40,000 nucleotides of DNA from contig WQBJ01000024.1 in the NCBI GenBank assembly GCA_013032095.1, positions 1 to 40,000 of the forward strand, in the 5' to 3' direction. This document shows positions 39 to 21,152 of the stretch, in pieces. Position 1 is the first letter of the stretch. Every line of letters begins with the position of its first letter. A model generated the notes under the pieces. It was not told the origin of the DNA. It did no database searches and saw only the letters and a program-made list of their open reading frames with translations. A program made the position numbers and the translations under genes. Source of the DNA: Ruegeria atlantica. GTDB taxonomy: Bacteria; Pseudomonadota; Alphaproteobacteria; Rhodobacterales; Rhodobacteraceae.

Positions 39-113
39 TGGCTGGGGTGGTAGGATTCGAACCTACGATACACGGTACCAAAAACCGCTGCCTTACCACT
101 TGGCTACACCCCA
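39..113 (-). tRNA. tRNA-Gln (anticodon UUG)
   Basis: The reverse complement folds as a 75-nt cloverleaf. Acceptor stem is UGGGGUG/CACCCCA. Anticodon stem is GCGGU/ACCGU with loop UUUUGGU, giving anticodon UUG. T arm is GTAGG-TTCGAAT-CCTAC. The 3' GCCA is encoded. Confidence 0.9.
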
Positions 114-6875: not shown

Positions 6876-9383
6876 ATGAAAACCCAAGTCAAAGCACTGG
6901 TCGTTGGCGGCGGCGCCGTCGGGACCTCGATTGCCTATCACCTGGCCAAGGCGGGCTGGGACGATGTGATGTTGATCGAACGGGACGAGCTGACGTCCGG
7001 GTCCACCTGGCACGCAGCGGGTCTGTTGCCGCTGTTCAACATGTCCTATGCGACAACTCACATCCACAAGTACTCGGTCGACTTCTACAAGACGCTTGAG
7101 GAAGAGACCGGCCTGAACGCGGGTTTTGCCGTGGTCGGCAACCTGCGGATGGCGCAGACGCAAGAGCGTATGGATGAATACATGCTTTATGCGTCCACTG
7201 CCGAGACTTGTGACGTTGCGTATGAATGGCTGACGCCCGAGCAGATCAAGGAACGCTGGCCGCTGATCGAGACTTCGGACCTGAAGGGTGCGATCTATCA
7301 CACCGAAGACGGCTACATTAACCCGGCCGACGTGACACAGGCGATGGCCAAGGGCGCACGTCAGCGTGGTGTCGAGATCGTCCGCAAGATGCAGGCCGAC
7401 GCCTTCCACTGGAACGGCACCCATTGGGAAGTCACCTGCACCAAGATGGTCGAAAAGGGTGGTAACCTTGTTGAGAGCGACGAGCAGGTGGTGATCACTG
7501 CCGAGCATGTTGTGACCGCATCGGGCAACCACGCGCAGCGCACCGCCAAGATGCTGGGCATCAAGATGCCTGCTATCCCGGTCGAGCACACTTTCATCGT
7601 CATGGACAAAGACCCCGAGCTGGTCAAATGGCGTGAGGCCGGCAACCCTGAACACCCTGTTGTGCGTGACGCCGACAACGAATCCTATGCGCGTGAAGAA
7701 CGTGGCGGCTGGATTCTGGGTATCTACGAACATGGCGCACCCGCGCGGTTCGAACATGGTGTGCCGGACAGCTTCCGTGCCGATCTGTTCCCGTTGGATC
7801 TGGACCGGATTGCAGATCAGTACATGGCAATGGCTGAACGCGTACCGTCCTGCGCTGAATCCGGCCTGAAAGACGATTTCAACGGCCCAATCTGCTATAC
7901 CCCCGATGGCAACCCGCTGGTTGGCCCGGCTCCGGGTCTGCGCAATATGTGGTTGGCCGAAGGTTTCTCGTTTGGGATCACCGCCGCAGGCGGCACCGGC
8001 TACTATCTGGCGCAGATGATGGTCGATGGCGAAGCCGAGATCGACATGGCCTCGCTGGACCCCAAGCGTTACAGCAGCAACTGGATGACCACCGAGTTCG
8101 CGGCCCGCAAGAATGAAGAGTGCTATGAGCACGTCTACATCCTGCACCATCCCGACGAAGAGCGTGCAGCTTGCCGTCCGCTGCGGACTGTTCCGGCGTA
8201 CGATCGCCAGAAGGCGCGTGGCGCGCAGTTCGGCTGGGTCAACGGATGGGAACGTCCGAACTACTTCGGCCCGGTCGATGCGCCCGAAAACTTCGACGAG
8301 GAAAGCCGTTCCTTCCGTCGTGGTAATTGGTGGCAGTACGCAGTCGAAGAAGCAAAAGCGATCCGCGAAGGCGTTGGCCTAATCGACGCGTCGGCCTTCA
8401 CCAAGCATGTCGTCAAAGGCCCCGGTGCGACCCAGTTCCTGGATTGGTTCACTTGCAACAAGCTGCCCAAGGTCGGTCGTATCAACCTGACCTACGCGCT
8501 GACCTCGCACGGCACCACCCGCACCGAATACACCATCGTCCGCAATGGCGAGAACAACTACTACATCGTCTCCGCCGGCGCCTGGACCGAGTACGACGCC
8601 GACTATCTGCGAAAAGCGGCCGAGGACAAGATGGAGGAGTTCGGTTACATCGAGATCCAGGACGTGACCACCCAGTGGGGCGTCTTCGCCATCGCCGGAC
8701 CCAAGTCGCGTGACGTTCTGAAAGAGGTCATCAAAGACGCCGATCCGGAATCCGCGCTGTCCAACAAGCGCTTCCCATGGCTGTCGGCCCGTCAGATCGA
8801 ACTGGGTATGTGTCCGGTCAACGCGATCCGCGTGGCCTATACCGGCGAGCTGGGCTGGGAACTGCACCACCCGATCGAAATGCAGAACTACCTGTTCGAC
8901 CTGCTGGAAAAAGCGGGTGAGAAGCACGGTATGAAGCTGGTCGGTGCCCGCGCTCAGAACTGGCTGCGTCAGGAGAAATCCTATCGCGCCTTCGGCACCG
9001 AGTTGGGCCGCGACGCAACCCCGCTGGAAGCCGACCTGCCGCGCTTTGTCGACCTGTCGAAAGACTTCTACGGCAAGGCCAAGCTGGAAGAGACCGGTGT
9101 GCGCGTGAAATGCTGCACCCTGCTGATCGACGGACCGGACGATGCCGATCCGTGGGGCCGCGAGGCGCTGTACACGCCGGAAGGTGAGCGCGTCGGTCGT
9201 CTGACCTCGGGCGGCTACTCGGTGGCCTTCGAAAAATCCATCGGCATGGGTTACGTGAAGCCCGAGCTGGCGGTCGAAGGCACCAAGCTGCAAGTCAAAA
9301 TTCAGGACAAGCTGTGGGATGCGGTTGTCACCTGCGACAGCCCCTACGATCCGAAGAATGAAGTTATCCGCAAGGACGGCTAA
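6876..9383 (+). CDS. Dimethylglycine/sarcosine dehydrogenase-family enzyme (FAD oxidoreductase fused to GcvT-like aminomethyltransferase domain)
   Basis: N-terminal dinucleotide fold VVGGGAVGTSIAYHLAKAG. C-terminal folate-binding GcvT-like region (YTGELGWELHHP). The 835-aa length is typical of the DMGDH/SARDH family. GGGGAG RBS precedes the ATG. Confidence 0.85.
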   Translation: MKTQVKALVVGGGAVGTSIAYHLAKAGWDDVMLIERDELTSGSTWHAAGLLPLFNMSYATTHIHKYSVDFYKTLEEETGLNAGFAVVGNLRMAQTQERMDEYMLYASTAETCDVAYEWLTPEQIKERWPLIETSDLKGAIYHTEDGYINPADVTQAMAKGARQRGVEIVRKMQADAFHWNGTHWEVTCTKMVEKGGNLVESDEQVVITAEHVVTASGNHAQRTAKMLGIKMPAIPVEHTFIVMDKDPELVKWREAGNPEHPVVRDADNESYAREERGGWILGIYEHGAPARFEHGVPDSFRADLFPLDLDRIADQYMAMAERVPSCAESGLKDDFNGPICYTPDGNPLVGPAPGLRNMWLAEGFSFGITAAGGTGYYLAQMMVDGEAEIDMASLDPKRYSSNWMTTEFAARKNEECYEHVYILHHPDEERAACRPLRTVPAYDRQKARGAQFGWVNGWERPNYFGPVDAPENFDEESRSFRRGNWWQYAVEEAKAIREGVGLIDASAFTKHVVKGPGATQFLDWFTCNKLPKVGRINLTYALTSHGTTRTEYTIVRNGENNYYIVSAGAWTEYDADYLRKAAEDKMEEFGYIEIQDVTTQWGVFAIAGPKSRDVLKEVIKDADPESALSNKRFPWLSARQIELGMCPVNAIRVAYTGELGWELHHPIEMQNYLFDLLEKAGEKHGMKLVGARAQNWLRQEKSYRAFGTELGRDATPLEADLPRFVDLSKDFYGKAKLEETGVRVKCCTLLIDGPDDADPWGREALYTPEGERVGRLTSGGYSVAFEKSIGMGYVKPELAVEGTKLQVKIQDKLWDAVVTCDSPYDPKNEVIRKDG

Positions 9384-9393
9384 TTTGAAAAGG

Positions 9394-9411
9394 CCCCAGC
9401 GAAAGCCGGGG
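9394..9411. repeat. Left copy of target-site duplication (CCCCAGCGAAAGCCGGGG)
   Basis: The identical 18-mer occurs in direct orientation at 20543..20560, immediately outside the two TIRs. The C4/G4 ends are complementary to each other, so the true duplicated length is ambiguous at 14-18 bp. Confidence 0.85.
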
Positions 9412-9516
9412 GGTATAGAGATATCCGCCAGAAAATAACTACTCACCTCAAAGGAGCCCGCACAGAGATGTGTGGGCTTTCTTTCTTGATCCAACCGTTG
9501 ATCGTGATCGACTGCT
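9412..9516. repeat. Left terminal inverted repeat (105 bp)
   Basis: Base-by-base comparison shows 9412..9516 equals the reverse complement of 20438..20542 with no mismatches (GGTATAGAGATATCCGCCAG...GATCGTGATCGACTGCT). Confidence 0.95.
9455..9487 (+). terminator. Inward-facing intrinsic terminator-like hairpin inside the left TIR
   Basis: AGCCCGCACA-GAGA-TGTGTGGGCT forms a 10-bp stem with one G-U pair and a GNRA loop. It is followed by TTCTTTCTT. Confidence 0.6.
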
Positions 9517-9543
9517 ATGAGCCCATACTGAACTCATCAGAGC

Positions 9544-10182
9544 TCAAATATCTGCAAGGTGGTCAAACTTTCGAATGAACGCTTCCTGCACGCTCTTATC
9601 TTGCGTTAAGAGCAATCCATACGACTTCAGATAGGCATTGATCGCGGTTTGTAGTGCATCTCGCCGAACAATTTTTTTCTTTGCGTCAACGGCAATGTTA
9701 CCTGAAGCCCATATCCTCCAACCATTTTTCGTGCGTGCCTCATGCAACAAAGCACATCGAACACTTTGATAGAATTCTCGCGATTCTAATTTGTCTGAAA
9801 AACATTCGCTGAACGGCTCCTCCCGAACGAGAAACTCACAAAATAGGGCGTTGCTACTTGAGTACTCATACTGGCCGAGTTTCTCGCCCTTTTTCAGGAA
9901 TTTGTAGCTTTTTCCGGCCTTCAGAGCTGCAAGGAACTCGATTAGAGCGCATTGAACAGAGACAATCGTGAATCCTTCACCTTGGACATCGCCATGGTCT
10001 TGGAGCACCTTTATCGGAGTTAGATAACGGTGACTGAGTCGAGCCATCAAAAAATCTTCAAAAGTCTTAGCCCAAAGGATTTCTTTTTCATTTTCATTTG
10101 CGTTTAGCTCGATCTTTCGCGCCTGCCAGTCTTTCACCGTGCGATGCCCGGCAATCTGGTCGCTTGCGTCGTCATTTGCCAT
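9544..10182 (-). CDS. Hypothetical 212-aa casposon cargo protein (possible HEPN-like R-x4-H motif)
   Basis: ATG at 10182 lies 69 bp downstream of the cas1 stop on the same strand, with GGAAG upstream. Sequence looks helical. R142-CALL-H147 is encoded at 9742..9759. No confident family assignment. Confidence 0.6.
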   Translation of the reverse strand: MANDDASDQIAGHRTVKDWQARKIELNANENEKEILWAKTFEDFLMARLSHRYLTPIKVLQDHGDVQGEGFTIVSVQCALIEFLAALKAGKSYKFLKKGEKLGQYEYSSSNALFCEFLVREEPFSECFSDKLESREFYQSVRCALLHEARTKNGWRIWASGNIAVDAKKKIVRRDALQTAINAYLKSYGLLLTQDKSVQEAFIRKFDHLADI

Positions 10183-10251
10183 CGTTTTTTACTTCCGTTC
10201 CAGCGCATTAACTTTCCCAAGTTGCTCTTAATAGATAGTTCACTTCAAGCA

Positions 10252-11421
10252 TCAAATCGGCAGGCCAAGCATTGTCGGCTGTGTCCGCATTCCAACCATA
10301 TGCCCGGCATAGGGGCGAGCGGAGTTTCGCAATTCAAACTCCACCTCATACACTACCTTCCTCGCCAAGTTTGGGCTTAGGCGACAAACGCCATCATCCT
10401 GCAAAATGAAATCCGCCCCCGTGAATATTTCGTCCTGGACCAGTTTCAACACAGCCCGGTCTACGATGGGGCGTAGTGGCTCCATCATGTCGAAGACGAA
10501 GGAGTGACGCCTTGGGTCTACACGGTTATGCAGAATCCCTTGTGACACGTCGTAACCATCGGCAATCACGCCGATCCTGACATGGGCTTCAAGCATGCGA
10601 TACGCGTAATTCAGCATCGCATTGACTGGATGAGTGGCATTATAGTTTTTTGGCTTGCCGGAACTTAACGTGGATCTGGAGAAGAAGCGCTTCCATTCGT
10701 GTTGGATTGGGTATCGTCCTTCAGCTCTCCAGTGGATTTTCAATGCTCTCCAGGAAAAGAAGTAGCCAGCTGCGACGCGTCCTTCCTCGGAGAGCAGGCC
10801 CCCGATACTCGACAGCACACCCTTTTGCAGCAATTCGATAACCGATTGAGTTGTATTGATCGCTTTGGTTTTCGAAGGGGAATCTGGTAGCAATTCAAGC
10901 AAGTTATGCAAAGTCGCTTCCGCCTTTGCTGAAATTAGAGGAATAGCGAAATCTAACCTTTTGCTTTCCTCGCTTTGGGTTTCGAATTGCCACATCAGCT
11001 TTTCCGGCAATACCGAGGACTTGCCGTTGCCGAGAGCAATGATAGGTTTTCCATTCCAATTCAATCGGATCAATTCGACGTTCTGCGTTGAAAGCCAATC
11101 CAATGCGTCCAGGGTTATATTGCCTGACCCGTCGATCAGGAAAATGCGCTTTGGTAAACCCAGATCTCCTTTGAAAAAGCGGTATTTGCGTATTTCAGAA
11201 GGGTAATGCGTATTTCCATCCTTTACCGCCAATGTGCCCTTTTCGACCGCAATCGAAATGCCGTGCCCCGACAAGATAAGGGGCGTGGCTTGTCTTTCCC
11301 GCCGCTTCCGCTTCGGGGTGTGTTGACGGATGGATTGAAGCCAATACTCTGATCTTACGGCCCATTCATCGTGGGTTTCTTCTAAATTTTCCAAATCGTA
11401 CATTATTCCAATCCAATTCAA
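10252..11421 (-). CDS. cas1: Cas1-family integrase (casposase)
   Basis: Cas1 hallmarks are present. N-terminal beta region LILSGHGISIAVEKGTLAVKDG and IFLIDGSGNITLDALDWLSTQNVELIRLNWNGKPI. Catalytic E in LSEEGRVAAGYFF (10783..10788). HPVNAMLNYAYRMLE. Catalytic H in GILHNRV (10528..10530). D/E in FDMMEPLRPIVD (10480..10491). An alternative start is the ATG at 11403. Confidence 0.9.
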   Translation of the reverse strand: MNWIGIMYDLENLEETHDEWAVRSEYWLQSIRQHTPKRKRRERQATPLILSGHGISIAVEKGTLAVKDGNTHYPSEIRKYRFFKGDLGLPKRIFLIDGSGNITLDALDWLSTQNVELIRLNWNGKPIIALGNGKSSVLPEKLMWQFETQSEESKRLDFAIPLISAKAEATLHNLLELLPDSPSKTKAINTTQSVIELLQKGVLSSIGGLLSEEGRVAAGYFFSWRALKIHWRAEGRYPIQHEWKRFFSRSTLSSGKPKNYNATHPVNAMLNYAYRMLEAHVRIGVIADGYDVSQGILHNRVDPRRHSFVFDMMEPLRPIVDRAVLKLVQDEIFTGADFILQDDGVCRLSPNLARKVVYEVEFELRNSARPYAGHMVGMRTQPTMLGLPI

Positions 11422-11647
11422 TGTTTTTGTTATTAATCATATCATTAGATTGAAATGACGAGCCTGTTTTCTTCGCCAAATAGGCGATTTTTTCCCGAGT
11501 TCTCCAAGAAATCCCAGATGGTTGACGGCGGCTAGATGGGTGCCAAAGTATCCTAACCCCCTGACTGATTCTTTTTGAGTCAACCCATTGCGAGAGTTTT
11601 GCGGGGGCTTTTCAGGTTCGTGAACATTCTCTTTCCTAAAGGGCGAC

Positions 11648-11669
11648 AGACCGGCCATCGCGCCGGTCT
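11648..11669. promoter_or_regulatory. Perfect 8-6-8 palindrome upstream of the HTH gene (operator candidate)
   Basis: AGACCGGC-CATCGC-GCCGGTCT lies 23 nt upstream of the ATG at 11692, within the divergent cas1 / HTH-HNH-polB intergenic region. Confidence 0.3.
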
Positions 11670-11691
11670 CAAACGTTTTAGGAGAGGCGCG

Positions 11692-12264
11692 ATGGCGAAA
11701 AAGCGCGACTACAAGGCAGAATACCAAAGGCGGATCGCCAATGGCCTGAAACGAGGACTATCCCGTTCCCAGGCACGTGGGCATCCATCCAAGGCGGAAG
11801 CGAGCGCATCCGGCATACAGGTTCCAAAGCCCAATGGTCAGCTTGAAGCTGCATTGCGAGAATTGAGACGCGGTGCCTCCCAGAAGGCTGCCGCGCAATC
11901 AGCCGGTGTCAGCCAAGAGCGTTTTCGCCGTTTTATCTACGGCCACGGCCTAGCCAGGCGAGAGGGACGATCCTGGGTTCTGACCGATGACCGGATGCGC
12001 CGCGTCACCACGATCCACCGGGGCGAAACCAAGACGGTGTGCGTCAATCGCTACGCAGAGGCGCAAACGGCGGGAGAGTATTCAGATGCTGTCGGTGTGT
12101 TTCTTCGTACCAACGATCCGTCCGTTTTGATCCCGTTTGTTGGGGGTGGTCTGACAGACCACAAAGGCCGCTTCCTCGAATTCGAGACGGACCCAAACGC
12201 TCTCTATCGTCACGCGTCCCAGGACACGCCCGCCTTTCACGAAATCTATCAAATCGTCAGCTAA
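11692..12264 (+). CDS. Helix-turn-helix DNA-binding protein (casposon-encoded)
   Basis: Track ORF was trimmed to the ATG at 11692, preceded by TAGGAGAGG. HTH-like segment GASQKAAAQSAGVSQERFRRFI. Basic N-terminus MAKKRDYKAEYQRRIANGLKRGLSRSQARG. Confidence 0.7.
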   Translation: MAKKRDYKAEYQRRIANGLKRGLSRSQARGHPSKAEASASGIQVPKPNGQLEAALRELRRGASQKAAAQSAGVSQERFRRFIYGHGLARREGRSWVLTDDRMRRVTTIHRGETKTVCVNRYAEAQTAGEYSDAVGVFLRTNDPSVLIPFVGGGLTDHKGRFLEFETDPNALYRHASQDTPAFHEIYQIVS

Positions 12265-12276
12265 AGGAGACACCTC

Positions 12277-12654
12277 ATGACAAAGACATACCAAGACCAG
12301 GAAACCCGCCGAGAAAAGGACTACCGCCGACTTCGGACGCGAAATCCAATCTGCGTTGGATGCGGCTATTCTGATCATCCAACTGCGCTGGAACTGGCCC
12401 ACATCATTCCGCGCAAGTTTGATGATGATGCCGTGGTGCTTTGCAGCAACTGCCACCGCGAACAGAGCGACGCCGAAAAGGATTTTTCCTACAGCCCGAC
12501 GACGGACAATCCGCAGATGGAAACCATCGGGCGGTATCTGTTGTCCGTCGCGGATATCCTGAAACTCGTTGCATCCAAATTCGAAGAGTTCGGGCATTGG
12601 CTGCTGGAACAGGCCGAACACGTTCTTCCGTATTGCCCGGAGGAAACGGCATGA
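12277..12654 (+). CDS. HNH endonuclease
   Basis: The pattern CVGCGYSDHPTALELAHIIPRKFDDDAVVLCSNCH matches the HNH/zinc-finger layout C-x2-C...H...N/C-x2-H. AAGGAG RBS is present. The stop overlaps the polB start as ATGA. Confidence 0.8.
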   Translation: MTKTYQDQETRREKDYRRLRTRNPICVGCGYSDHPTALELAHIIPRKFDDDAVVLCSNCHREQSDAEKDFSYSPTTDNPQMETIGRYLLSVADILKLVASKFEEFGHWLLEQAEHVLPYCPEETA

Positions 12655-15401
12655 GCCTACCATCGCCGTCTGAAGTCGCCGTGCGGGCCTACACCGAAAA
12701 ACCAAATGCCCGCCCCCTCGCGGCAAAGTCCTTTGCGGCAGGCGAGGATCACCCGTCACCGTGGACGCTGATCTTTGATTGCGAAACCACCATTGATGCC
12801 GCGCAAACCCTGCGCGTTGGCGTCTACCAAATGCGCAAGTCGGGTTCGTTGAAAGAAGAGGGCCTATTCTTCGATCCCGAACACCTCGGCTGCGAGGATC
12901 GCTCCGCGATTGAGGACTACGCGCAGTCGCACAAATTGAAGGTTCTCTCAGCTGATGCGTTTCGTAGAGAGGTTTTTCTCAAGATCGCCTACCTGAGACG
13001 GGGGGTGGTTGTGGGGTTCAATCTTCCCTTCGACCTGTCACGGATCGCGATCAAACACGGGGCTGCGCGCGGCCCAATGCGGGGCGGGTTCACCTTTCAT
13101 CTCAGCCGCTACAAGAGCGATCCGCAGATCCGCGTCAAGCACCTGAGCGCTCGCGCCGCGCTAATCGACTTTGCACAGCCTGCGAAGCAAGAAACACCGC
13201 GCGGTATGCGTAAGAAAGGGATGAAAGTTCCGCATCATCGCGGGTATTTTGTCGACGTCAAAACTTTGGCGGCGTCTCTGACCAGCCGAAGCTTCTCATT
13301 GGGCGGCCTGTGCAAGTATCTCGGAACGCAATCGCAAAAACTTGCAACCGAAGAGCATGGCGGGCCAATCACAGCCGACTATCTCGACTACGCGCGCGCA
13401 GATGTTCAGGCCACCTGGGAATGTTTTGCCGAACTTGACCGGAGATACAGCGAGCATGGCCTCGATACACCGACCCATCGCATTCTGAGCGAAGCCAGCA
13501 TTGGCAAAGCCTATCTCAAGCAGATGGGGATCCGACCCTTCCTGGGAAATTTGCCAGATTTTCCCCGAGAGATATTTGGCCAGATCACCTGTGCCTACTA
13601 CGGCGGGCGTGCCGAAGTTCGCATTCGGCGAGAGGCAACCCAAGTTCTCTATTGTGATTTCAAGTCCATGTATCCTACCGTCAGCGCCTTGATGGGGCTG
13701 TGGTCGTTTGTGGTCGCGCAAGACCTGAGCATCCATGACACAACGCGGGAAACCCAAGTATTCCTCGACAAGGTATCCTTGCAGGACATGCAGTCGAAAG
13801 AGACCTGGAAGCGTCTGCGCACCCTAGTCCGCATACAAACGAACCATGATCTGTTGCCTGTGCGGGCCAGGTATGACGGCAAGGTCAACACCATCGGCCT
13901 GAACTACGTCTCAAATGAGCAACCGCTCTGGTACACATTGGCCGATTGCATCGCATCAAAACTGTTGTCTGGGAAAACGCCGATCATCGAAGAGGCGATG
14001 ACCTTCGAACCGGGCGAGGTTCAGGACGGTTTCGAACCGATGAACCTGTTTGGAAATCCCAACTATCGCGTCGACCCTTCCTGTGACGACGTGTTCACCC
14101 GCTTCATTGATCTGCGCGATGCGGCACGGGCAAGAAAAGACCCTGTGCAGCAGGCCATCAAGATCGTCGCCAACTCAACGAGCTATGGCATCTTCATCGA
14201 AGTTAACCGGGACAATGCGCCCAAGCCGGAACCTTTGAGTGTGTATGGCCCGAACGGGCATCTGTTGAAAACCGACGCAACCGCTGTCGAAGAACCGGGT
14301 CGCTACTATCACCCGCTCTTGGGAACGCTGATCACCGGAGCCGCCCGCTTGATGCTGGCCTTGTCGGAACGCGTGGCAGCGGATCAATGGTTAAACTGGG
14401 TGTTCTGCGATACCGACAGCCTCGCTATGGCAAAGCCCGCGCATATGGAACAAACCGAGTTCCTGGCAAAGGGGCAAAGCGTGATCGACTGGTTCAATAG
14501 TCTCAACCCTTATCGAAAGCCGGGCTCCATTCTGGAAATGGAAGATGCAAATCATGATCCAAACACAGGACAGTCGGAGCCGCTCTATTGCCTGGCCATC
14601 TCGGCAAAGCGCTATGCGCTCTACAATCTCTCAAACGACGCCAAACCCGTATTGCGCAAAGCATCCGCGCACGGTCTTGGGCATTGGATGGCTCCCTACA
14701 GCGAATATGACGCACCAGGATGTGTGCCAAACCCCGCATTGTTGCCATCTGAGATAGGCGTCGACCGTTGGCAGCATGATTTGTGGATCAAGATAATCGA
14801 AGCCGTTCTACGCGGCACGCCCGATCAGGTCAGCCTGGACTATCATCCCGCCTTGCAAAATCCCTGCGTCAGTCGCTACGGCGCAACCAGCCCTCAACTG
14901 TTGAAGTGGGTTGAGATCTGGAACCAGGATCAGCCGTACCAAGACCAAATCAAGCCGTTTGGGTTTCTGAGCGCGTTCACCGCAAAGTCCGGGTGTTTAA
15001 TCGAACCAAGGCAAGATGTGATCGTGGGGACGCCTGGTCGTGGCAGGCCTACCAAGTCCAAGACGCCAAAGCCAATTGCCCCGTTTGAACGGGATAGCCG
15101 ATTGGCGGTTTCCCAGGCCTTCGACCGGATTGCCGGAGATCAAGTGCACCCTTCAGAACTCAAGACCTATGCCGAGGCCCTGGCACAATTCCATCTCAGC
15201 ACCGAAGACAAATTCGAGAACGGCGATTTTATCCACGTCGGCGAAACTCGAAGACGCCATGTCCAGGTAGAGAATGTCGGGCTTATCGGCAAAGAAGCCA
15301 ACAAGGTTGGATCATGCGGTGAGGCTGATCCCATCGTGTCGGCCCAAGCGAGCTTCGGAGCGCTTCAAACCATCAATCACCAAACGGAGGTCAGCCAATG
15401 A
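12651..15401 (+). CDS. polB: Family-B DNA polymerase
   Basis: Exo I: LIFDCETT (12777..12785). Exo II: GFNLPFDLSRI. Exo III: YLDYARADVQATW. Pol motif A: LYCDFKSMYPTV (D codon at 13656). Motif B: KIVANSTSYGIF. Motif C: VFCDTDSLAM (DTDS at 14410..14421). Track ORF was trimmed to the ATG at 12651 after GGAGGAAAC. Confidence 0.9.
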   Translation: MSLPSPSEVAVRAYTEKPNARPLAAKSFAAGEDHPSPWTLIFDCETTIDAAQTLRVGVYQMRKSGSLKEEGLFFDPEHLGCEDRSAIEDYAQSHKLKVLSADAFRREVFLKIAYLRRGVVVGFNLPFDLSRIAIKHGAARGPMRGGFTFHLSRYKSDPQIRVKHLSARAALIDFAQPAKQETPRGMRKKGMKVPHHRGYFVDVKTLAASLTSRSFSLGGLCKYLGTQSQKLATEEHGGPITADYLDYARADVQATWECFAELDRRYSEHGLDTPTHRILSEASIGKAYLKQMGIRPFLGNLPDFPREIFGQITCAYYGGRAEVRIRREATQVLYCDFKSMYPTVSALMGLWSFVVAQDLSIHDTTRETQVFLDKVSLQDMQSKETWKRLRTLVRIQTNHDLLPVRARYDGKVNTIGLNYVSNEQPLWYTLADCIASKLLSGKTPIIEEAMTFEPGEVQDGFEPMNLFGNPNYRVDPSCDDVFTRFIDLRDAARARKDPVQQAIKIVANSTSYGIFIEVNRDNAPKPEPLSVYGPNGHLLKTDATAVEEPGRYYHPLLGTLITGAARLMLALSERVAADQWLNWVFCDTDSLAMAKPAHMEQTEFLAKGQSVIDWFNSLNPYRKPGSILEMEDANHDPNTGQSEPLYCLAISAKRYALYNLSNDAKPVLRKASAHGLGHWMAPYSEYDAPGCVPNPALLPSEIGVDRWQHDLWIKIIEAVLRGTPDQVSLDYHPALQNPCVSRYGATSPQLLKWVEIWNQDQPYQDQIKPFGFLSAFTAKSGCLIEPRQDVIVGTPGRGRPTKSKTPKPIAPFERDSRLAVSQAFDRIAGDQVHPSELKTYAEALAQFHLSTEDKFENGDFIHVGETRRRHVQVENVGLIGKEANKVGSCGEADPIVSAQASFGALQTINHQTEVSQ

Positions 15402-15739
15402 GCTGGGAGCACATCGAATACCCCGCATTTTGCCGAGATTGCGGGCACAAGGGCAGCCGCATCTATTCGGAAAACGACTGGTTCCGGACCAATGTCACTT
15501 GGATTGGATTTGAATTTGCCGAAGTTCGAACAAAGAAAGTCCACTCAGGGACAGTTTCCTGCCCCGAATGCGGCTCTAGCTCAATACATGTAGAAAAAGA
15601 GAAAGGAGCATACGTCAAGCGTGATCAATTTTGGGATGATAGGACAACCGGAGTAATGGGAGAGGACGAATTGTGTAAATTCACTACCAGCGAGCCCATC
15701 GGCAGCAATGCGCAGAAAGCGACCTTTGCAAAATTATAG
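15398..15739 (+). CDS. Zinc-ribbon protein (hypothetical)
   Basis: Two C-x2-C pairs (CRDCGHKG ... CPECGSSS). The ATG overlaps the polB stop as ATGA, suggesting translational coupling. Confidence 0.6.
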   Translation: MSWEHIEYPAFCRDCGHKGSRIYSENDWFRTNVTWIGFEFAEVRTKKVHSGTVSCPECGSSSIHVEKEKGAYVKRDQFWDDRTTGVMGEDELCKFTTSEPIGSNAQKATFAKL

Positions 15740-16112
15740 GGACGGCCCACAGCCGTCGTCAGCTGGTTCCGGGAACGCTTAATCGCAGTTTTCCCGGAGC
15801 GGACGTTGGTCAAATTTGCAGCATCCTTCGAGTCGAGACGGCAGCACCGCGCAAAAAAGTAACCAATTGGCGGGCTGATTAGCCCAAAGTGGTCGTTTTT
15901 TCACGTCGCAATCTAAGGGCAACTCATCGTGGCAAACAGTGGGTGTGCAGCGGAAGGGAAAATCGGCGAAAGAACCTTCGCTCTGTTGGAGGGGCTTCAA
16001 GGGAAGCTTATTAAACAAGATTCTCTTCGATATGTTTTTTCTGAAACGCGCCGAGGATGAAGCCCTAAAATTTTGATATTTATAGAATTAACGACTTTCA
16101 AACCTTGGCGGC

Positions 16113-16141
16113 TTGAAAAGTGTATTGCGTAACGCTACAGT
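16113..16141 (+). promoter_or_regulatory. Sigma-70-like promoter candidate for the large cargo gene
   Basis: TTGAAA, a 17-nt spacer, then TACAGT. It lies about 27 nt upstream of the ATG at 16168 in an AT-rich 430-bp intergenic region. Confidence 0.35.
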
Positions 16142-16167
16142 ATACGAAAGAATTTGTTGAGGTCTTC

Positions 16168-19100
16168 ATGTCGAATCGCACAATCAGCGCTAACCACCCC
16201 GGTTACTTCATAAAAAACAACGTTATTCCAGAAGGAGTGAGCGTCACCGCCGCTGCAAAAACACTCGGCGTAGGGAGGCCAGCGCTGTCCAATCTTCTAA
16301 ATGGAAAGTCATCCCTTTCCCCCGAGATGGCAGCTAAAATTGAAAAGGCGTTTGGTCACAGCGCAAAAGAGTTGCTCGATCTACAAAGCGCTTATGAAGC
16401 CGGCTCTAACGTCTGTAGTGCCGCCACAACAACCTCGTTTCCGTATGTACCTCCCTTCTTGGGGGCTACCGCAAATCAGATATTCGATTGGTCGCAGCGT
16501 ATATCTTCGCGTACCCGCTTTGCAGTCTTTCTAAGAACGCTTGTTCACAGTACTTGCGCTTCTACGTCTTTGGTAGACTTTCCCGGAAATGATGACGGCG
16601 AGCGACCAGGTTGGGATGGAGAGGTTGAATGCGAAACGGGTAACCCGTGGGTTCCAGTAGGGAAATCCGGCTGGGAATTCGGCACAAATGCAAACTACGC
16701 ATCCAAAGCAAACAAGGACTACAAGAAGAGTGTGAAGGCTCTAGAGGCTGAAAAGCGCAAGGGGATGACGTTCGTCTTCGTCACGCCTCATCGCTGGAAA
16801 AACAAGTCGAAATGGGAGGCGGAGAAACGTGCTGAGGGACATTGGAAGGATGTCCGTGTGTATGACGTTAGCGATCTAGAGCAATGGCTGGAGCAGTCTT
16901 TACCAGCTCAAACATGGTTCGCAAACGAAACCGGCGTCGAGTACGAAGGCACACTGTCTCTAGACCGCTGCTGGGTAAAGTGGAACGCTGACTGCAAGCC
17001 ATCCTTTACGGAGGAAATTTTCGAAGAGGCGATTTCGACAGTTGGAAAAAAGCTCTCGGACCGACTTCGCAATGACGGGGATCGAGTGGCTCGTTTGGCT
17101 GCGGACTCTGTCGAGGAAGGACTTGCTTTCTTGCATGCTCTCTTTCACCACAGTGAAGGAAAATTGGCACAACAACGCGACCGGGTCATTGTCTTCACTA
17201 AGCCCGGACCTCTCGCAAAGCTGGCTGCAAAGACCAGTCGCTTCATACCGATCATAACAAACAGAGAAGTTGAAAAGGAACTATCCGAATCAGGGCATAG
17301 ACTAGGTGGCATCGTAATCACGCCACGCACGACCGAGGGTGTCGAGAAGGATATTGTTTTGGAGCCCTTGAGTGGAGAGGCATTCCGTGTGGGTCTCGAA
17401 AAAATGGGACTTGGTCGTGATGACATATCCCGACTGGGCAACGAGTCAGGTCGTTCGCTCACGGTGCTTAGAAGACGGCTTTCAACTTCTGACGCGATAC
17501 AAAGGCCCGAGTGGAGTAACCGCAGTGATTTGGCAAAGTTCCTGTTTCCAATTCTGCTTGCTGGCGCTTGGAACTCTAGAAACAAAGCTGACTGCATTAT
17601 CCTGTGCGAGCTTGCAGGAATTGATAACTACCGTGATCTTGAAAACCAATTCGCAAAGCTGCTGAACCTCAATAGTCCGCCAGTCTGGGCTGTTGGAGGC
17701 TTCCGAGGGGTAGTCTCAAAGATTGATGCGGTCTATGCAATCCGTAGCTGGATAAGCGAAGATGAGCTCAAGCGTTTTTTCTCTGTCGCAGATTTGGTTT
17801 TGTCGGAGCGCGATCCATCCTTAGACCTTCCCGAAGAAGATCGTTGGGCAGCGCATATTTATGATAAGAAAAGAGATATTAGCGGCTCCCTTCGTGACGG
17901 GATCGCCGACAGCCTCGCATTGTTGTCCATGCATGGGAAAGAATTGTTCTTCTCACGAACAGGTTTAAACCCAGAACATCTATGTTCTAACCTTGTTAAA
18001 GGGTTGCTAGAACCGCTTACTGCGGAGCTTCTTGAATCGCAGGCTTCAGAACTACCAATCTATGCAGAGGCCGCGCCGGATACATTCCTCACTATTTTTG
18101 AGAAAGACCTTAAGACGGGCGAGCCCGTTGTGTTTTCTCTCATCCGCCCGGCAGGTACAGGTCTCTTTGAGCGAACCCCTCGTACTGGTTTGCTCTGGGC
18201 GCTCGAAAACCTTGCTTGGTCACCTATCCACTTACCGCGCGTTCTTGAAATTCTGGCGAGGCTCAGTCAGATCAAGTTGGACGACAACTGGGTAAATAAG
18301 CCAGCGGAAACGCTCCGCTCAATCTTCCGAAGTTGGTTTCCTCAGACTGGTGCGCCGCTAAAACAGCGGATAGCACTGTTGAAGAGGATGATTGCAGATC
18401 ATCCCGATGTAGCTTGGAAAATTTGCAAGGCAGAGCTTGATCCGTCTCCGGGTTTTGCTAGCCCCAATCATAAGCCGAGATGGAGAGACGATGCCTTTGG
18501 GCATGGTGAGGGGGTCACCAGAGGAGAACGTAGTGAATTTGTGGTTTTCTGCATCGAAAGCGCGCTCAACTGGCCAAGATACGACGTCGAGATTCTATGT
18601 GACCTGATCGGTTTTGAAGACTTTGTGACTGACGATCATAATAAACAGGTGTGGCGCGTTGTTAATGCATGGGCGCAAACAGCAAGTGATGTAGATAGAG
18701 CTACTCTTAGAGAGAAAATTCGAACAACAACACGCCGCACGATGCGCCGTAGGAAGCGCAAACTTAGAGATGCAGAGAGCGATACACGACGAACTAAATT
18801 AGCAAAGGATACTTACGATGCGCTCGAACCACGCGATTTAATCCAGAAGTTTTCATGGCTGTTCAAGAAGCACTGGGTGCCGGAAGCGTGGGACGAGATA
18901 GAAGATGATACCGACTATCGGAAAAGAGACGAGCGCATACAATCCCTGAGGGATGATGCGGCTCAACAGGTTTTCCAAGTGAAAGGTTTCCAAGGGTTCG
19001 TTGAACTTGCTTTTCTTGGGGAGGCCTCATGGATTGTGGGTAGGTGTGCCGGGCGTGTGTTAAACGACATTAGTGCACGAAGTGACTTTGTTCATTTTGT

Positions 19101-20244
19101 GATTTCGGAGCACTCCCTTGCCAGCACTTTCGCTGCCCGACAACTAGTTGGAGGCATGTTCGCTGAAATCGGAGCAGAGAAAGCGGTCAATACCTTGGCT
19201 ACGCTTCGCGGCAGTCTGGACCAAACAAAACTACTGGACCTGTACTGCCTTGCACCGTTCGTGATGGCGGTGTGGTTAGACTTGGGGCATTTCGACTTAG
19301 ATTTTCAGAATGACTATTGGAAGTCTGTTAGTCCGACTTGGATGCATCATTCCGAAGAGGATTTGAGGTTTGCTACTGGTAAGCTTATTGACCAGGGACG
19401 CCCAGCTGCAGCCTTTCAATTAATACATCTGGACTTAAAGTCGATTGCTTCAGTTCAGCTTTATCAGGTGCTTTTGGACATGACGACCTCAAATGAGGAG
19501 CGTGGTGCAATCCAATCGATGGAAGCATATTCCATTAAGGAAGCTATTTCGCTTTTGACAGAACGCGGGGCTCAAAGCCAAAGCGAACTGGCCCTTTTGG
19601 AGTTTCGTTACCTCGCGCTTTACCGCGATGACAAAGAAGAGGCTTTGAACTTAGAGAAAGAGATATCACAGAACCCAAGCATTTTTTGTGATGCCATTGA
19701 ATTGGCCTATAAGCGTGACGACGGCTCATCTGACAAGGACGATATCGAGGACCTAGAGACAGTCGCGACGAACGCATATCGAATGCTTGACGTGCTGAAA
19801 CGGATACCTGGCAGTCGCGACGATGGTATCGTTGACGCCGACCATCTTGAAGAATGGATAGGTGAGGCTCGTAGATTGTGTGAAAAGAAAGGGCGCAGCG
19901 ATATTGCTGACTACAGAATTGGTGAGCTCCTAAGTAATGCTAAAGTAGGCGCAGACGAAGTGTGGCCATGTGAAGGCGTCAGGGCAGTTATGGACCGTTT
20001 GATGACAGACAGCATCTCACAAGGCTTTTACATCGGCACAAAGAACTCTCGCGGTGTCCATTTCCGAGGTGAAGGAGGAGCTGAAGAGAGGAGCCTCGCC
20101 AAGAAGTATTCAGATTGGGCATCGTCCATGGAGTATGAATATCCGAACACTGCTACAGCACTCCGCACCATCTCAGACAGCTACGTGAGCGAAGCTGAGT
20201 ACGAAGATAACGAAGCAGCGATCCGCAAGCGTATGCGTTATTGA
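16168..20244 (+). CDS. Large (1358 aa) cargo protein: N-terminal HigA/VapI-type HTH fused to uncharacterised domains
   Basis: Track ORF was trimmed to the ATG at 16168 (GAGG upstream). N-terminus HPGYFIKNNVIPEGVSVTAAAKTLGVGRPALSNLLNGKSSLSPEMAAKIEKAFGHSAKELLDLQ is a typical HigA-family Xre HTH. The remaining roughly 1260 aa are mostly helical with no canonical Walker A. Confidence 0.85.
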   Translation: MSNRTISANHPGYFIKNNVIPEGVSVTAAAKTLGVGRPALSNLLNGKSSLSPEMAAKIEKAFGHSAKELLDLQSAYEAGSNVCSAATTTSFPYVPPFLGATANQIFDWSQRISSRTRFAVFLRTLVHSTCASTSLVDFPGNDDGERPGWDGEVECETGNPWVPVGKSGWEFGTNANYASKANKDYKKSVKALEAEKRKGMTFVFVTPHRWKNKSKWEAEKRAEGHWKDVRVYDVSDLEQWLEQSLPAQTWFANETGVEYEGTLSLDRCWVKWNADCKPSFTEEIFEEAISTVGKKLSDRLRNDGDRVARLAADSVEEGLAFLHALFHHSEGKLAQQRDRVIVFTKPGPLAKLAAKTSRFIPIITNREVEKELSESGHRLGGIVITPRTTEGVEKDIVLEPLSGEAFRVGLEKMGLGRDDISRLGNESGRSLTVLRRRLSTSDAIQRPEWSNRSDLAKFLFPILLAGAWNSRNKADCIILCELAGIDNYRDLENQFAKLLNLNSPPVWAVGGFRGVVSKIDAVYAIRSWISEDELKRFFSVADLVLSERDPSLDLPEEDRWAAHIYDKKRDISGSLRDGIADSLALLSMHGKELFFSRTGLNPEHLCSNLVKGLLEPLTAELLESQASELPIYAEAAPDTFLTIFEKDLKTGEPVVFSLIRPAGTGLFERTPRTGLLWALENLAWSPIHLPRVLEILARLSQIKLDDNWVNKPAETLRSIFRSWFPQTGAPLKQRIALLKRMIADHPDVAWKICKAELDPSPGFASPNHKPRWRDDAFGHGEGVTRGERSEFVVFCIESALNWPRYDVEILCDLIGFEDFVTDDHNKQVWRVVNAWAQTASDVDRATLREKIRTTTRRTMRRRKRKLRDAESDTRRTKLAKDTYDALEPRDLIQKFSWLFKKHWVPEAWDEIEDDTDYRKRDERIQSLRDDAAQQVFQVKGFQGFVELAFLGEASWIVGRCAGRVLNDISARSDFVHFVISEHSLASTFAARQLVGGMFAEIGAEKAVNTLATLRGSLDQTKLLDLYCLAPFVMAVWLDLGHFDLDFQNDYWKSVSPTWMHHSEEDLRFATGKLIDQGRPAAAFQLIHLDLKSIASVQLYQVLLDMTTSNEERGAIQSMEAYSIKEAISLLTERGAQSQSELALLEFRYLALYRDDKEEALNLEKEISQNPSIFCDAIELAYKRDDGSSDKDDIEDLETVATNAYRMLDVLKRIPGSRDDGIVDADHLEEWIGEARRLCEKKGRSDIADYRIGELLSNAKVGADEVWPCEGVRAVMDRLMTDSISQGFYIGTKNSRGVHFRGEGGAEERSLAKKYSDWASSMEYEYPNTATALRTISDSYVSEAEYEDNEAAIRKRMRY

Positions 20245-20437
20245 TGGTTGCTGGACTGAAGTAGTCTTAGCGGAACTGGAACCTAGGCAATGCTCAACGG
20301 ATCGTGAGCGTGTTCCACCTTCGACAAGGTGACCAAACTCCACGTCTGCTTTGGGTTGGGATCAGATAGGGTCGACCAATCTACACAGTGTCGCAAGGTA
20401 CAAATCAAAAAAAGCTAAAATCAAAAAAGTGGCTTCG

Positions 20438-20542
20438 AGCAGTCGATCACGATCAACGGTTGGATCAAGAAAGAAAGCCCACACATCTCTGTGCGGGCTC
20501 CTTTGAGGTGAGTAGTTATTTTCTGGCGGATATCTCTATACC
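20438..20542. repeat. Right terminal inverted repeat (105 bp)
   Basis: Exact reverse complement of 9412..9516. Confidence 0.95.
20467..20499 (-). terminator. Inward-facing intrinsic terminator-like hairpin inside the right TIR
   Basis: Mirror image of 9455..9487, so the same hairpin plus U-rich tract reads on the minus strand. Confidence 0.6.
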
Positions 20543-20560
20543 CCCCAGCGAAAGCCGGGG
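20543..20560. repeat. Right copy of target-site duplication (CCCCAGCGAAAGCCGGGG)
   Basis: Identical to and in the same orientation as 9394..9411. It is followed by CCTTTTTCTTTCC, so this copy still reads as a plus-strand terminator. Confidence 0.85.
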
Positions 20561-20615
20561 CCTTTTTCTTTCCTTCATCAGAAAAATTGCGCCAGACATG
20601 GCTTGTAGAAGTACC

Positions 20616-21152
20616 CTAGTTGTACAGCTTCAGACGGTCGAGCAAGTCTTCCGTGGCATTTACCAACGGGCGACAACTTAGCGAAACCACTTGAGTGAAA
20701 TGCCCGCTGACATAGGTCTGGACATAGTGGCCAGACCACCCGGTGCTGCAGGACCTTTTGATGTTCAACTGGTCGTTACCTTTGTAATTCACCGAATACT
20801 TGCCAAGGGAGAATTCGCTGAATGTTGAGCGGTATTCAGCCTTATGGGTAATCTTGGATATCCCCTTAAAGCTACTTTCGGGAAATGGCTCCTCGATCAG
20901 AACATTCGCTCGGTTCGGTTCCCCTAGGTAGATCGTCAGGCCGCTTGTTGGGTCAAGCGTGTAGTCAACAATCAGGGTAGTTCCAGGCGTATAACCCTTT
21001 GGGACTTCGACCTTTGGCTTCGTCACTTTGTTATCCGTGGGGACAAATCGGTTGGCCAGAACGTCGCAATGAAATCGGCCCCTGATCGGATCTTCTTGGG
21101 CCATCGACTGTTCGGGTAACAAGGTTAACAGTATAGCTAATATGGCTTTCAT
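20616..21152 (-). CDS. Hypothetical secreted protein
   Basis: 178-aa ORF with a signal-peptide-like N-terminus MKAILAILLTLLPEQSMAQE. No recognised domain. It is visibly AT-richer than the neighbouring core genes. Confidence 0.6.
   Translation of the reverse strand: MKAILAILLTLLPEQSMAQEDPIRGRFHCDVLANRFVPTDNKVTKPKVEVPKGYTPGTTLIVDYTLDPTSGLTIYLGEPNRANVLIEEPFPESSFKGISKITHKAEYRSTFSEFSLGKYSVNYKGNDQLNIKRSCSTGWSGHYVQTYVSGHFTQVVSLSCRPLVNATEDLLDRLKLYN

Follow-up and report, generated by a model that had tools for sequence, protein, structure and literature searches.

A casposon-borne gene of Ruegeria atlantica predicted to encode an Avs-like immune receptor with a P-loop-less switch module and a fused HigA-type helix-turn-helix domain

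Introduction

The first 40,000 nucleotides of contig WQBJ01000024.1 of Ruegeria atlantica (GenBank assembly GCA_013032095.1), the whole stretch of DNA analysed here and referred to as the window, contain a casposon with a cargo gene for a protein of 1358 amino acids (aa). The protein combines an N-terminal helix-turn-helix (HTH) domain with a nuclease-like domain, a NOD-like module that lacks a P-loop, and a long alpha-helical solenoid; it is interpreted below as a probable self-regulated immune receptor of the antiviral STAND (Avs) type. An original prediction, made by a model from the DNA letters and a list of open reading frames (ORFs) alone, had singled out this gene as possibly related to defence.

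Gene and domain organization

The gene and the domains of its product are as follows.

16168..20244, forward strand: cargo gene, stop codon included, for the 1358-aa HTH / nuclease-like / P-loop-less NOD / solenoid protein (ORF list)
16189..16422, forward strand: residues 8-85, HigA/VapI-type Xre HTH (TIGR02607, PF01381, HigA matches in the Protein Data Bank (PDB), helices at residues 11-84 in the AlphaFold2 (AF2) model)
16465..16932, forward strand: residues 100-255, PD-(D/E)xK-like (Mrr-like) nuclease fold (AF2 secondary structure, invariant columns, alignment with Avs4)
17065..17742, forward strand: residues 300-525, NOD-like module with ADSxxE(G/A) at the P-loop position and Walker-B strand VIVFT (AF2 and Foldseek)
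17755..20241, forward strand: residues 530-1358 (~830 aa), all-alpha solenoid, presumed sensor (AF2)
18025..18402, forward strand: residues ~620-745, segment resembling PD-Lambda-4_A (Avs8A), profile positions ~556-683 of 1283

The program-made ORF begins earlier, at GTG 16120, and has the same end at 20244. The ATG at 16168 is taken as the correct start, because a Shine-Dalgarno sequence (GAGG) lies 5 nt ahead of it and GTG 16120 falls within the conserved promoter/operator region described below. The original prediction of a real 1358-aa gene at these positions is upheld by the same two observations, and its estimate that the gene fills more than a third of the element was right (4077 of ~11,131 bp, 37%); its figure of about 45% GC was too low, as the gene has a GC content of 0.499 (casposon, 0.514; host flanks, 0.58). 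A protein of 100% identity (P0001) is present in a public collection, and full-length homologs of ~1350 aa are numerous.

Two AF2 models were computed on a 99-sequence alignment, one for residues 1-500 (pLDDT 87.7) and one for residues 441-1358 (pLDDT 88.6). The NOD-like module was modelled with an alpha/beta nucleotide-binding domain (NBD; residues 305-400), a helical lid (403-445), in which ESGRSLTVLRRRL (427-438) is the best-conserved stretch, and a winged helix (~450-525, hairpin at 506-515). The top Foldseek match of residues 1-500 against the PDB was Avs4 bound to a phage portal protein (8dgf_A; E 8.8e-4, probability 0.97), in an alignment of 448 columns that takes in the nuclease-like region; further matches were to Avs3, the AVAST5 filament, RFC clamp-loader subunits, and ClpC. 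No Walker A motif (G/AxxxxGK[ST]) was found at the structural P-loop position in any of the 255 family members checked; the family consensus at the beta1-alpha1 junction is ADSxxE(G/A)LAF, and the Walker-B strand, VVFT(E/K), ends in T. AF2 and Foldseek thus recovered the tripartite layout of effector, NOD and repeat sensor, and the family has no functional P-loop.

A second string, A(A/S)xIYGK[ST] at residues ~556-568 (window positions ~17833-17871), occurs in many homologs and reads AAHIYDKK in the window protein. It was considered as a P-loop and rejected, as it is located in a helix of the solenoid and does not follow a beta-strand; W560, A562, K567 and R569 in and around it are nearly invariant.

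The nuclease-like domain was modelled with an alpha-beta-beta-beta-alpha-beta core (helix 114-129, strands 133-137, 151-155 and 165-171, helix 177-191, strand 200-205). Four residues, D150 at the start of beta-2, E170 in beta-3, and K180 and D184 in the following helix, are invariant in a set of members at 31-40% identity.

For the C-terminal model, Foldseek returned only generic HEAT/ARM solenoids (FANCI, SF3B1, CAND1 and karyopherins; E ~1e-4). The PADLOC profile PD-Lambda-4_A matched the window protein weakly (E 2e-4) and matched 23 of 36 diverse members, with a best E of 3.6e-10, always collinearly and at the same positions, i.e. confined to the segment listed above and not over the full length of the profile. 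PD-lambda-4A has been renamed Avs8A, a protein with an Mrr nuclease and a STAND module that becomes active in response to major capsid proteins (10.1101/2025.07.02.662641; 10.64898/2026.01.04.697583). With the HTH discounted, the window protein and the Avs8A profile are close in length and align collinearly, hence the family is read as a distant relative of Avs8 or as a sharer of its sensor module; it is not filed as a member of Avs8, since only ~120 residues are demonstrably homologous. When the family profile was searched against PDB sequences, only HigA-type HTH proteins and marginal TPR matches at the extreme C-terminus were obtained. A PADLOC match to PDC-M69A was discarded as trivial, for it maps to the HTH only; other PADLOC matches examined were HTH_VI, mad1, RmrA and capH.

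With respect to the protein, the original prediction fared well. It had placed a nuclease-like block at residues ~130-270, which agrees with the modelled fold and its four invariant residues; a STAND-like core without Walker A at ~300-460, which agrees with the models and with the 255 members checked; and helical repeats in the last ~850 aa, where a solenoid of ~830 aa was found. Its overall reading, an effector followed by a degenerate switch and a repeat sensor in the manner of Avs proteins, is borne out by the AF2 layout and by Avs4 as the top structural match. The statement that the protein fits no recognised family was correct in so far as Pfam and NCBIfam see only the HTH and no AVAST model matches, but it missed the local resemblance to PD-Lambda-4_A, which emerged from the PADLOC search proposed with it; in the Foldseek search, also proposed, Avs4 was obtained as the best fold.

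HTH domain, promoter and operator

Two features directly upstream of the gene concern its expression.

16113..16141, forward strand: promoter-like site, -35 TTGAAA (16113-16118), 17-nt spacer, -10 TACAGT (16136-16141) (consensus scan)
16121..16146, strand not applicable: putative operator TGTATTGCGTAACGCTACAGTATACG, the window's slightly degenerate copy of TGTATTGTGTAGCGCTACACAATACA, overlapping the promoter spacer and the -10 hexamer

TIGR02607 matched residues 8-77 above its cut-off (E 3.7e-15; 55.5 bits against 47.7), and the domain matched HigA sequences in the PDB and, by Foldseek, HigA chains at TMt 0.7-0.8, in agreement with the HigA-type HTH originally proposed for residues ~8-85. The promoter-like hexamers proposed at the same time were located as listed; the position is kept in homologs from unrelated contexts, with TTGACA at the equivalent place. 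The operator described next had escaped the original prediction.

The upstream regions of the window gene and of homologs from unrelated contexts (49-83% protein identity) were aligned, and a conserved block was found between the TTGACA -35 and the Shine-Dalgarno sequence. Its core, GTGTA-N4-TACAC, was detected with at most two mismatches and at most 200 nt upstream of the start in 73 of 83 non-redundant loci (26 perfect, 30 with one mismatch, 17 with two). The corresponding controls gave 3 of 75 about 500 nt further upstream (-700..-488), none of 83 within the gene itself, and 6.3 of 83 after the sequences had been shuffled. The extended consensus, TGTATTGTGTAGCGCTACACAATACA, is a perfect 26-bp palindrome of four TGTA/TACA quarter-sites at a median distance of 51 nt before the ATG, and its outer quarter-sites fall on the -35-like (TTGTAT or TTGACA) and -10-like (TACAnT) hexamers, 17 nt apart. 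The evidence for the operator is comparative, across homologous loci; a search of the whole window with the core gave no evidence for extra binding sites in the casposon or its terminal inverted repeats (TIRs).

HigA proteins are obligate dimers and act through inverted repeats as repressors of their own promoters (PMC12266136); the paper on P. vulgaris HigA prints no operator sequence for comparison. Because the conserved palindrome overlaps the promoter and HigA proteins act in this way, autorepression is the simplest reading of the HTH, i.e. the domain most likely binds the palindrome and shuts off its own promoter.

A minority of members, of ~1260 aa, are without the HTH. Furthermore, a subfamily of 28% identity (locus L103:3728-7792, on Rhizobium gallicum plasmid pRgalIE4872c) has an unrelated Cro/C1-type HTH at its N-terminus and a different upstream palindrome, GTCATAT-N5-ATATGAC, with the body of nuclease, P-loop-less NBD and solenoid unchanged. 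The HTH is thus regarded as a modular, swappable regulatory add-on and not as part of the effector. This plasmid gene adjoins an AbiEi/AbiEii pair and a gene for an 'ATP-binding protein' spanning ~6.2 kb (record 34947-41102).

The match to TIGR02607 above its curated cut-off and the structural likeness to HigA, together with the names given by NCBI, JGI and UniRef, would also suit a true HigA antitoxin of a type II toxin-antitoxin module with a long C-terminal extension. We consider this very improbable: no HigB/RelE-like gene or conserved small ORF adjoins the gene in the window, at 82 homologous loci or in annotated contexts; there is no upstream toxin gene in an operon, since promoter and operator are located directly upstream of the gene; and ~93% of the protein is something other than HigA, its annotation being due to an equivalog model that matches one domain.

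Family distribution and genomic context

At least 3245 matches were obtained in a collection clustered at 90%, nearly all of 1340-1380 aa, and 6459 clusters of 50% identity at E <= 1e-3, of which 2656 at E <= 1e-30. Relatives were found in 508 species of at least six phyla when one genome per species was scanned, and comprise Alpha-, Beta-, Gamma- and Deltaproteobacteria, Paenibacillus, Clostridiaceae, Bacteroidota, Planctomycetota and Acidobacteriota. In public databases (NCBI, JGI, UniRef) they are named 'HigA family addiction module antitoxin' or 'helix-turn-helix transcriptional regulator'.

An all-against-all comparison of ORFs within 4 kb on each side revealed no conserved neighbour, as no ORF family occurred at more than 5 of the 82 loci. 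Recurrent neighbours were an Xre HTH protein, serine recombinases, insertion sequence (IS) transposases, integrases, and a relaxase-like protein. Representative neighbourhoods of homologs contain the following genes.

Neighbourhood 1: transposase and prophage
Neighbourhood 2: island with NikA (relaxase accessory protein) and integrase
Neighbourhood 3: integrase, Eco57I-type restriction-modification system (type IIG) and AAA_15 ATPase
Neighbourhood 4: DruA, AAA_23 and several IS elements
Neighbourhood 5: SLFN_AlbA_2 and DUF2971
Neighbourhood 6: AAA_21 with RloB, MmeI/Eco57I methyltransferase, integrase and PIN
Neighbourhood 7: AbiEi/AbiEii on a conjugative Rhizobium plasmid

In PLSDB, 48 plasmids carry the gene (25 conjugative, 10 mobilizable). 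Among phages, one partial match was found in 50,697 records, and in IMG/VR 9 of 2.9 million contigs were positive. The distribution corresponds to that of a stand-alone gene of defence type which travels on mobile elements other than viruses. The survey of homolog neighbourhoods suggested with the original prediction gave the same picture of islands, plasmids, transposon-rich regions and defence genes.

A literature search for HTH-fused or Walker-less Avs proteins returned mostly irrelevant material. The part of the supplement to a 2026 census of STAND proteins that was available holds no family accession and neither 'HigA' nor 'HTH', which is not evidence of absence from the census; the family may already be listed there under some number.

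The casposon and its cargo slot

The element that carries the gene comprises the following features.

9412..20542, strand not applicable: casposon between its target-site duplications (TSDs) (TIRs, TSD and core genes)
9394..9411: left 18-bp TSD copy, CCCCAGCGAAAGCCGGGG (longest direct repeat between both ends)
20543..20560: right 18-bp TSD copy, CCCCAGCGAAAGCCGGGG (longest direct repeat between both ends)
10252..11421, reverse strand: casposase Cas1 (PF01867, E 2.4e-33)
12277..12654, forward strand: casposon HNH endonuclease, 125 aa (PF01844, 21.9 bits against a cut-off of 21.4)
12651..15401, forward strand: family-B DNA polymerase PolB (PF03175), likely start at ~12651 giving 916 aa
15398..15739, forward strand: zinc-ribbon protein, 113 aa, downstream of PolB (weak zinc-ribbon matches in Pfam and NCBIfam)

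The TIRs (9388-9523 and 20431-20566) are 136 nt long and 93% complementary. The insertion point is a terminator hairpin just 3' of a gene for a DAO + GCV_T (dimethylglycine-dehydrogenase-like) protein (6876..9383, stop codon at 9381-9383), and when the outer flanks are joined the hairpin AAAAGGCCCC...GGGGCCTTTTT is restored. The 18-bp TSD itself belongs to this hairpin; hence the TIR reported by the repeat finder overshoots the true ends of the element by ~24 nt. As Cas1, PolB, HNH, TIRs and TSD are all present, the element is an intact casposon of ~11.1 kb.

The casposase has 632 homologs, of which the named ones are alphaproteobacterial (Hyphomonas, Hirschia, Oceanicaulis, Marinicauda, Robiginitomaculum and Sneathiella); several of these genera are placed in Hyphomonadaceae/Maricaulaceae. 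The program-made PolB ORF (12441-15401, 986 aa) overlaps the HNH gene with its upstream part, and the start at ~12651 is probable because PolB has 907-916 aa in related casposons. From its bacterial host, the HNH gene and the taxa of the casposase relatives, compared with the published classification (PMC4046053), the carrier is assigned to the family-3 type, an assignment by gene content and taxa and not by phylogeny.

The closest related casposons (casposase 58-71% identical) share Cas1, a 190-aa gene, a 125-aa HNH gene and PolB; an HNH counterpart of 124-125 aa is found at the equivalent position. The three closest ones that were examined are without a homolog of the cargo gene and contain different genes in the slot after PolB. 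In casposon L087 the slot holds a 113-aa gene, which likewise follows PolB, and an ankyrin-repeat protein (L087:4131-5310). In casposon L090 it holds an AAA_15/AAA_21 ATPase and a 366-aa protein, a defence-like pair, and McrA-like and HNH nucleases are encoded on the far side, beyond Cas1 (L090:2642-5349 and 11171-13269). This points to a cargo bay of variable and in part defence-like content in casposons of this clade.

Two further ORFs of the casposon (11575-12264, forward strand, 229 aa; 9544-10182, reverse strand, 212 aa) had no match in Pfam, NCBIfam or PADLOC. Genes of 190-203 aa adjoin Cas1 at similar positions in related casposons, a likeness by position and size alone, and the two ORFs may represent conserved HTH-type accessory proteins of the casposon family.

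No relatives of Cas1, PolB or any other casposon ORF were detected within 10 kb of the gene at 86 homologous loci. On account of this result and of the differing genes in related casposons, the gene is considered cargo in a variable post-PolB slot and not a casposon component. The original description as casposon cargo is therefore correct for this locus, with Cas1, a PF03175 polymerase, 136-nt TIRs and an 18-bp TSD around the gene, but the gene is not specific to casposons. The same observations bear on the proposal that the protein is a core component. A conserved protein of family-2 casposons combines an HTH with HEAT repeats at its C-terminus, and a role in target-site choice or integration was proposed for it (PMC4046053); an HTH and solenoid protein within the TIRs could be taken for its counterpart. 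Apart from the 86 loci and the three related casposons, the conservation of the gene's own promoter and operator outside casposons speaks against this proposal, which we regard as effectively refuted.

Sporadic acquisition of cargo by casposons is known, with a Ser/Thr kinase, a KAP ATPase and restriction-modification genes among the examples (PMC4046053), and in a 2024 survey of 48 casposons their defence-gene density was several times below that of pipolins (PMC11551731). No literature report of an Avs-like gene as casposon cargo was found.

The carriers of the gene also raise the question of its target. With the same architecture, the protein could act upon other mobile genetic elements, as a weapon of competition or exclusion between elements or as a device that stabilises its carrier. 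The gene is carried by a casposon, by plasmids of which more than half are conjugative, by integrative islands and in transposon-rich regions, and in related casposons different cargo, of nuclease or ATPase type, occupies this slot; but Avs3/4 and Avs8, its nearest characterised relatives, recognise phage proteins. The near absence from phage genomes fits a phage trigger and a mobile-element trigger alike. We consider a target among mobile elements doubtful and prefer a phage protein as the trigger.

Predicted function

The gene product is most simply read as a P-loop-less, self-regulated, single-polypeptide immune receptor of the Avs type that would cut DNA upon sensing of a foreign protein; we give this composite reading a probability of roughly 55%. 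In the proposed mechanism, the ~830-aa solenoid would bind a foreign protein, with a conserved phage protein as the most likely ligand. Binding would free the NOD-like module (NBD, lid and winged helix, as modelled) to oligomerise independently of ATP, which is not needed in this scheme because Walker A and Walker B are lost family-wide. Oligomerisation would join the PD-(D/E)xK-like domains, so that DNA is cut and the infection aborted, by analogy with Avs3, Avs4 and Avs8. The HigA-type HTH, seated on the 26-bp palindrome over its own -35 and -10 as HigA proteins are on theirs, would keep the level of a potentially toxic nuclease low. Promoter, operator and ORF form a self-contained cassette that moves between mobile elements.

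Several points weigh against this reading. With the P-loop lost, the model offers no account of how oligomerisation is switched. The case for defence draws on fold, a local match to a hidden Markov model (HMM) and genomic context. The AVAST models of PADLOC v2.0.0 did not match the window protein or any of the 36 diverse members, and neither did Pfam and NCBIfam models match the body (~1270 residues) of these proteins. Only about 110 of the ~830 sensor residues resemble Avs8, too few to point to a particular trigger. The operator of the window departs from the 26-bp consensus at 5 positions, and the 14-nt core gave 6 matches in the whole window where 6.3 are expected, which by itself is not above chance. 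Nuclease activity is predicted from a non-canonical motif: the position of the canonical (D/E)xK lysine (+2 of E170) is occupied by G172, and by Gly or Ser across the family. K180 and D184 might substitute for this lysine.

The missing lysine and the genuine HTH with its strongly conserved operator also admit a signal-sensing transcription factor of the MalT/AfsR/GutR kind, in which the solenoid would sense a protein or other ligand, the HTH would be the output that regulates genes, and the nuclease-like domain would serve as a scaffold without catalysis. Regulators of the STAND type whose effector domain binds DNA are established, and NCBI calls several members 'helix-turn-helix transcriptional regulator'. 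We judge this explanation unlikely. Apart from that in the promoter of the gene itself, no conserved operator was found, and a conserved neighbour that might serve as target is lacking; the invariance of D150, E170, K180 and D184 at 31-40% identity is hard to square with a scaffold; members without the HTH, or with a different one, retain the same body; and the gene is found in mobile and defence contexts.

A more far-reaching version of the immune-receptor reading, which we hold only tentatively, includes a feed-forward step. In the resting state, HTH dimers or tetramers would occupy the four quarter-sites of the palindrome, i.e. the promoter; trigger-induced oligomerisation would then lift the HTH off the operator, and thereby activate the nuclease and de-repress synthesis of the receptor at the same time. 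The family would then represent widespread ATP-independent Avs-type receptors, and casposons would be vehicles for innate-immunity genes.

Comparison with known systems

The protein is of a known kind, the Avs/STAND pattern-recognition nucleases. With Avs8 (PD-lambda-4) it shares the domain order of nuclease, NOD and helical sensor, the length (~1265 aa without the HTH, for a profile of 1283 positions) and the homologous, collinear segment of ~120 aa at the start of the sensor. Avs8A consists of an Mrr nuclease, a STAND NTPase and a TPR-like sensor, and senses the HK97-fold major capsid protein (10.1101/2025.07.02.662641). The Avs8 of Klebsiella (KpAvs8) has degenerate Walker A/B motifs, which suggests that it has no ATPase activity (10.64898/2026.01.04.697583); in the family described here, in contrast, loss of the P-loop is family-wide and not sporadic. 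The similarity to Avs8 is limited to one segment, with no full-length HMM match, and there is no second gene resembling Avs8B at the 82 loci; in the window the gene directly abuts the TIR. Unlike Avs8, the casposon protein has an additional HigA-type HTH with a cognate operator, and a Gly at the position of the canonical nuclease lysine.

Avs4 and Avs3 (8dgf and 8dgc) resemble the protein as single-gene combinations of effector, NOD and repeat sensor, Avs4 being the best structural match of residues 1-500. They differ in that there is no match at the sequence level, that they are without an HTH, and that their sensors are different. Moreover, the Walker motifs of Avs3 and Avs4 are intact, and these STAND NTPases bind ATP.

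In both fold and sequence family, the first 85 residues agree with HigA antitoxins (HigA of P. vulgaris, E. coli and P. aeruginosa; GraA), and autorepression by the same logic is suggested by the palindromic operator over the promoter of the gene. Unlike these antitoxins, the protein has no toxin partner, its HTH continues into a fused body of 1270 aa, and the operator is a 26-bp palindrome with four quarter-sites that is conserved across phyla. The carrier corresponds to family-3 casposons of the HenMar-C1 type in Cas1, HNH, PolB, TIRs and TSD, and in casposase relatives from Hyphomonas, Hirschia, Oceanicaulis and Marinicauda; it differs from them in that its cargo is an Avs-like gene.

New are a very large, phylum-spanning family of NOD scaffolds without a P-loop, which is missed by curated libraries and named from its first 85 residues; the fusion in cis of a predicted repressor domain, with a nearly invariant operator over the promoter; and the carriage of an Avs-like gene by a casposon. 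The surprise is tempered by the Walker degeneracy of KpAvs8, by the HTH regulators of many defence genes, and by the sporadic cargo of casposons, all of which are already known.

If the immune-receptor reading is correct, thousands of entries of ~1350 aa named as HigA antitoxins or HTH transcriptional regulators would have to be re-read as immune receptors. The family would allow ATP-free switching and oligomerisation of a STAND/NOD scaffold to be examined, and would extend the single observation on KpAvs8. A fused repressor with a near-invariant operator would be a compact and portable means to silence a toxic defence gene, and both operator and HTH offer experimental handles. The locus is also a concrete case of a defence-type gene on a casposon; should the feed-forward version hold, casposons, as relatives of the CRISPR adaptation machinery, would be shown to be vehicles for innate-immunity genes.

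Other features of the window

A tRNA-Gln gene (anticodon TTG; 39-113, reverse strand) is located at the left edge of the window and is unrelated to the insertion site of the casposon. Just beyond the right TIR, an ORF of 178 aa (20616-21152, reverse strand) had no family match; its product has a hydrophobic N-terminus (MKAILAILLTLLP...) and is possibly a secreted protein or lipoprotein of the host.

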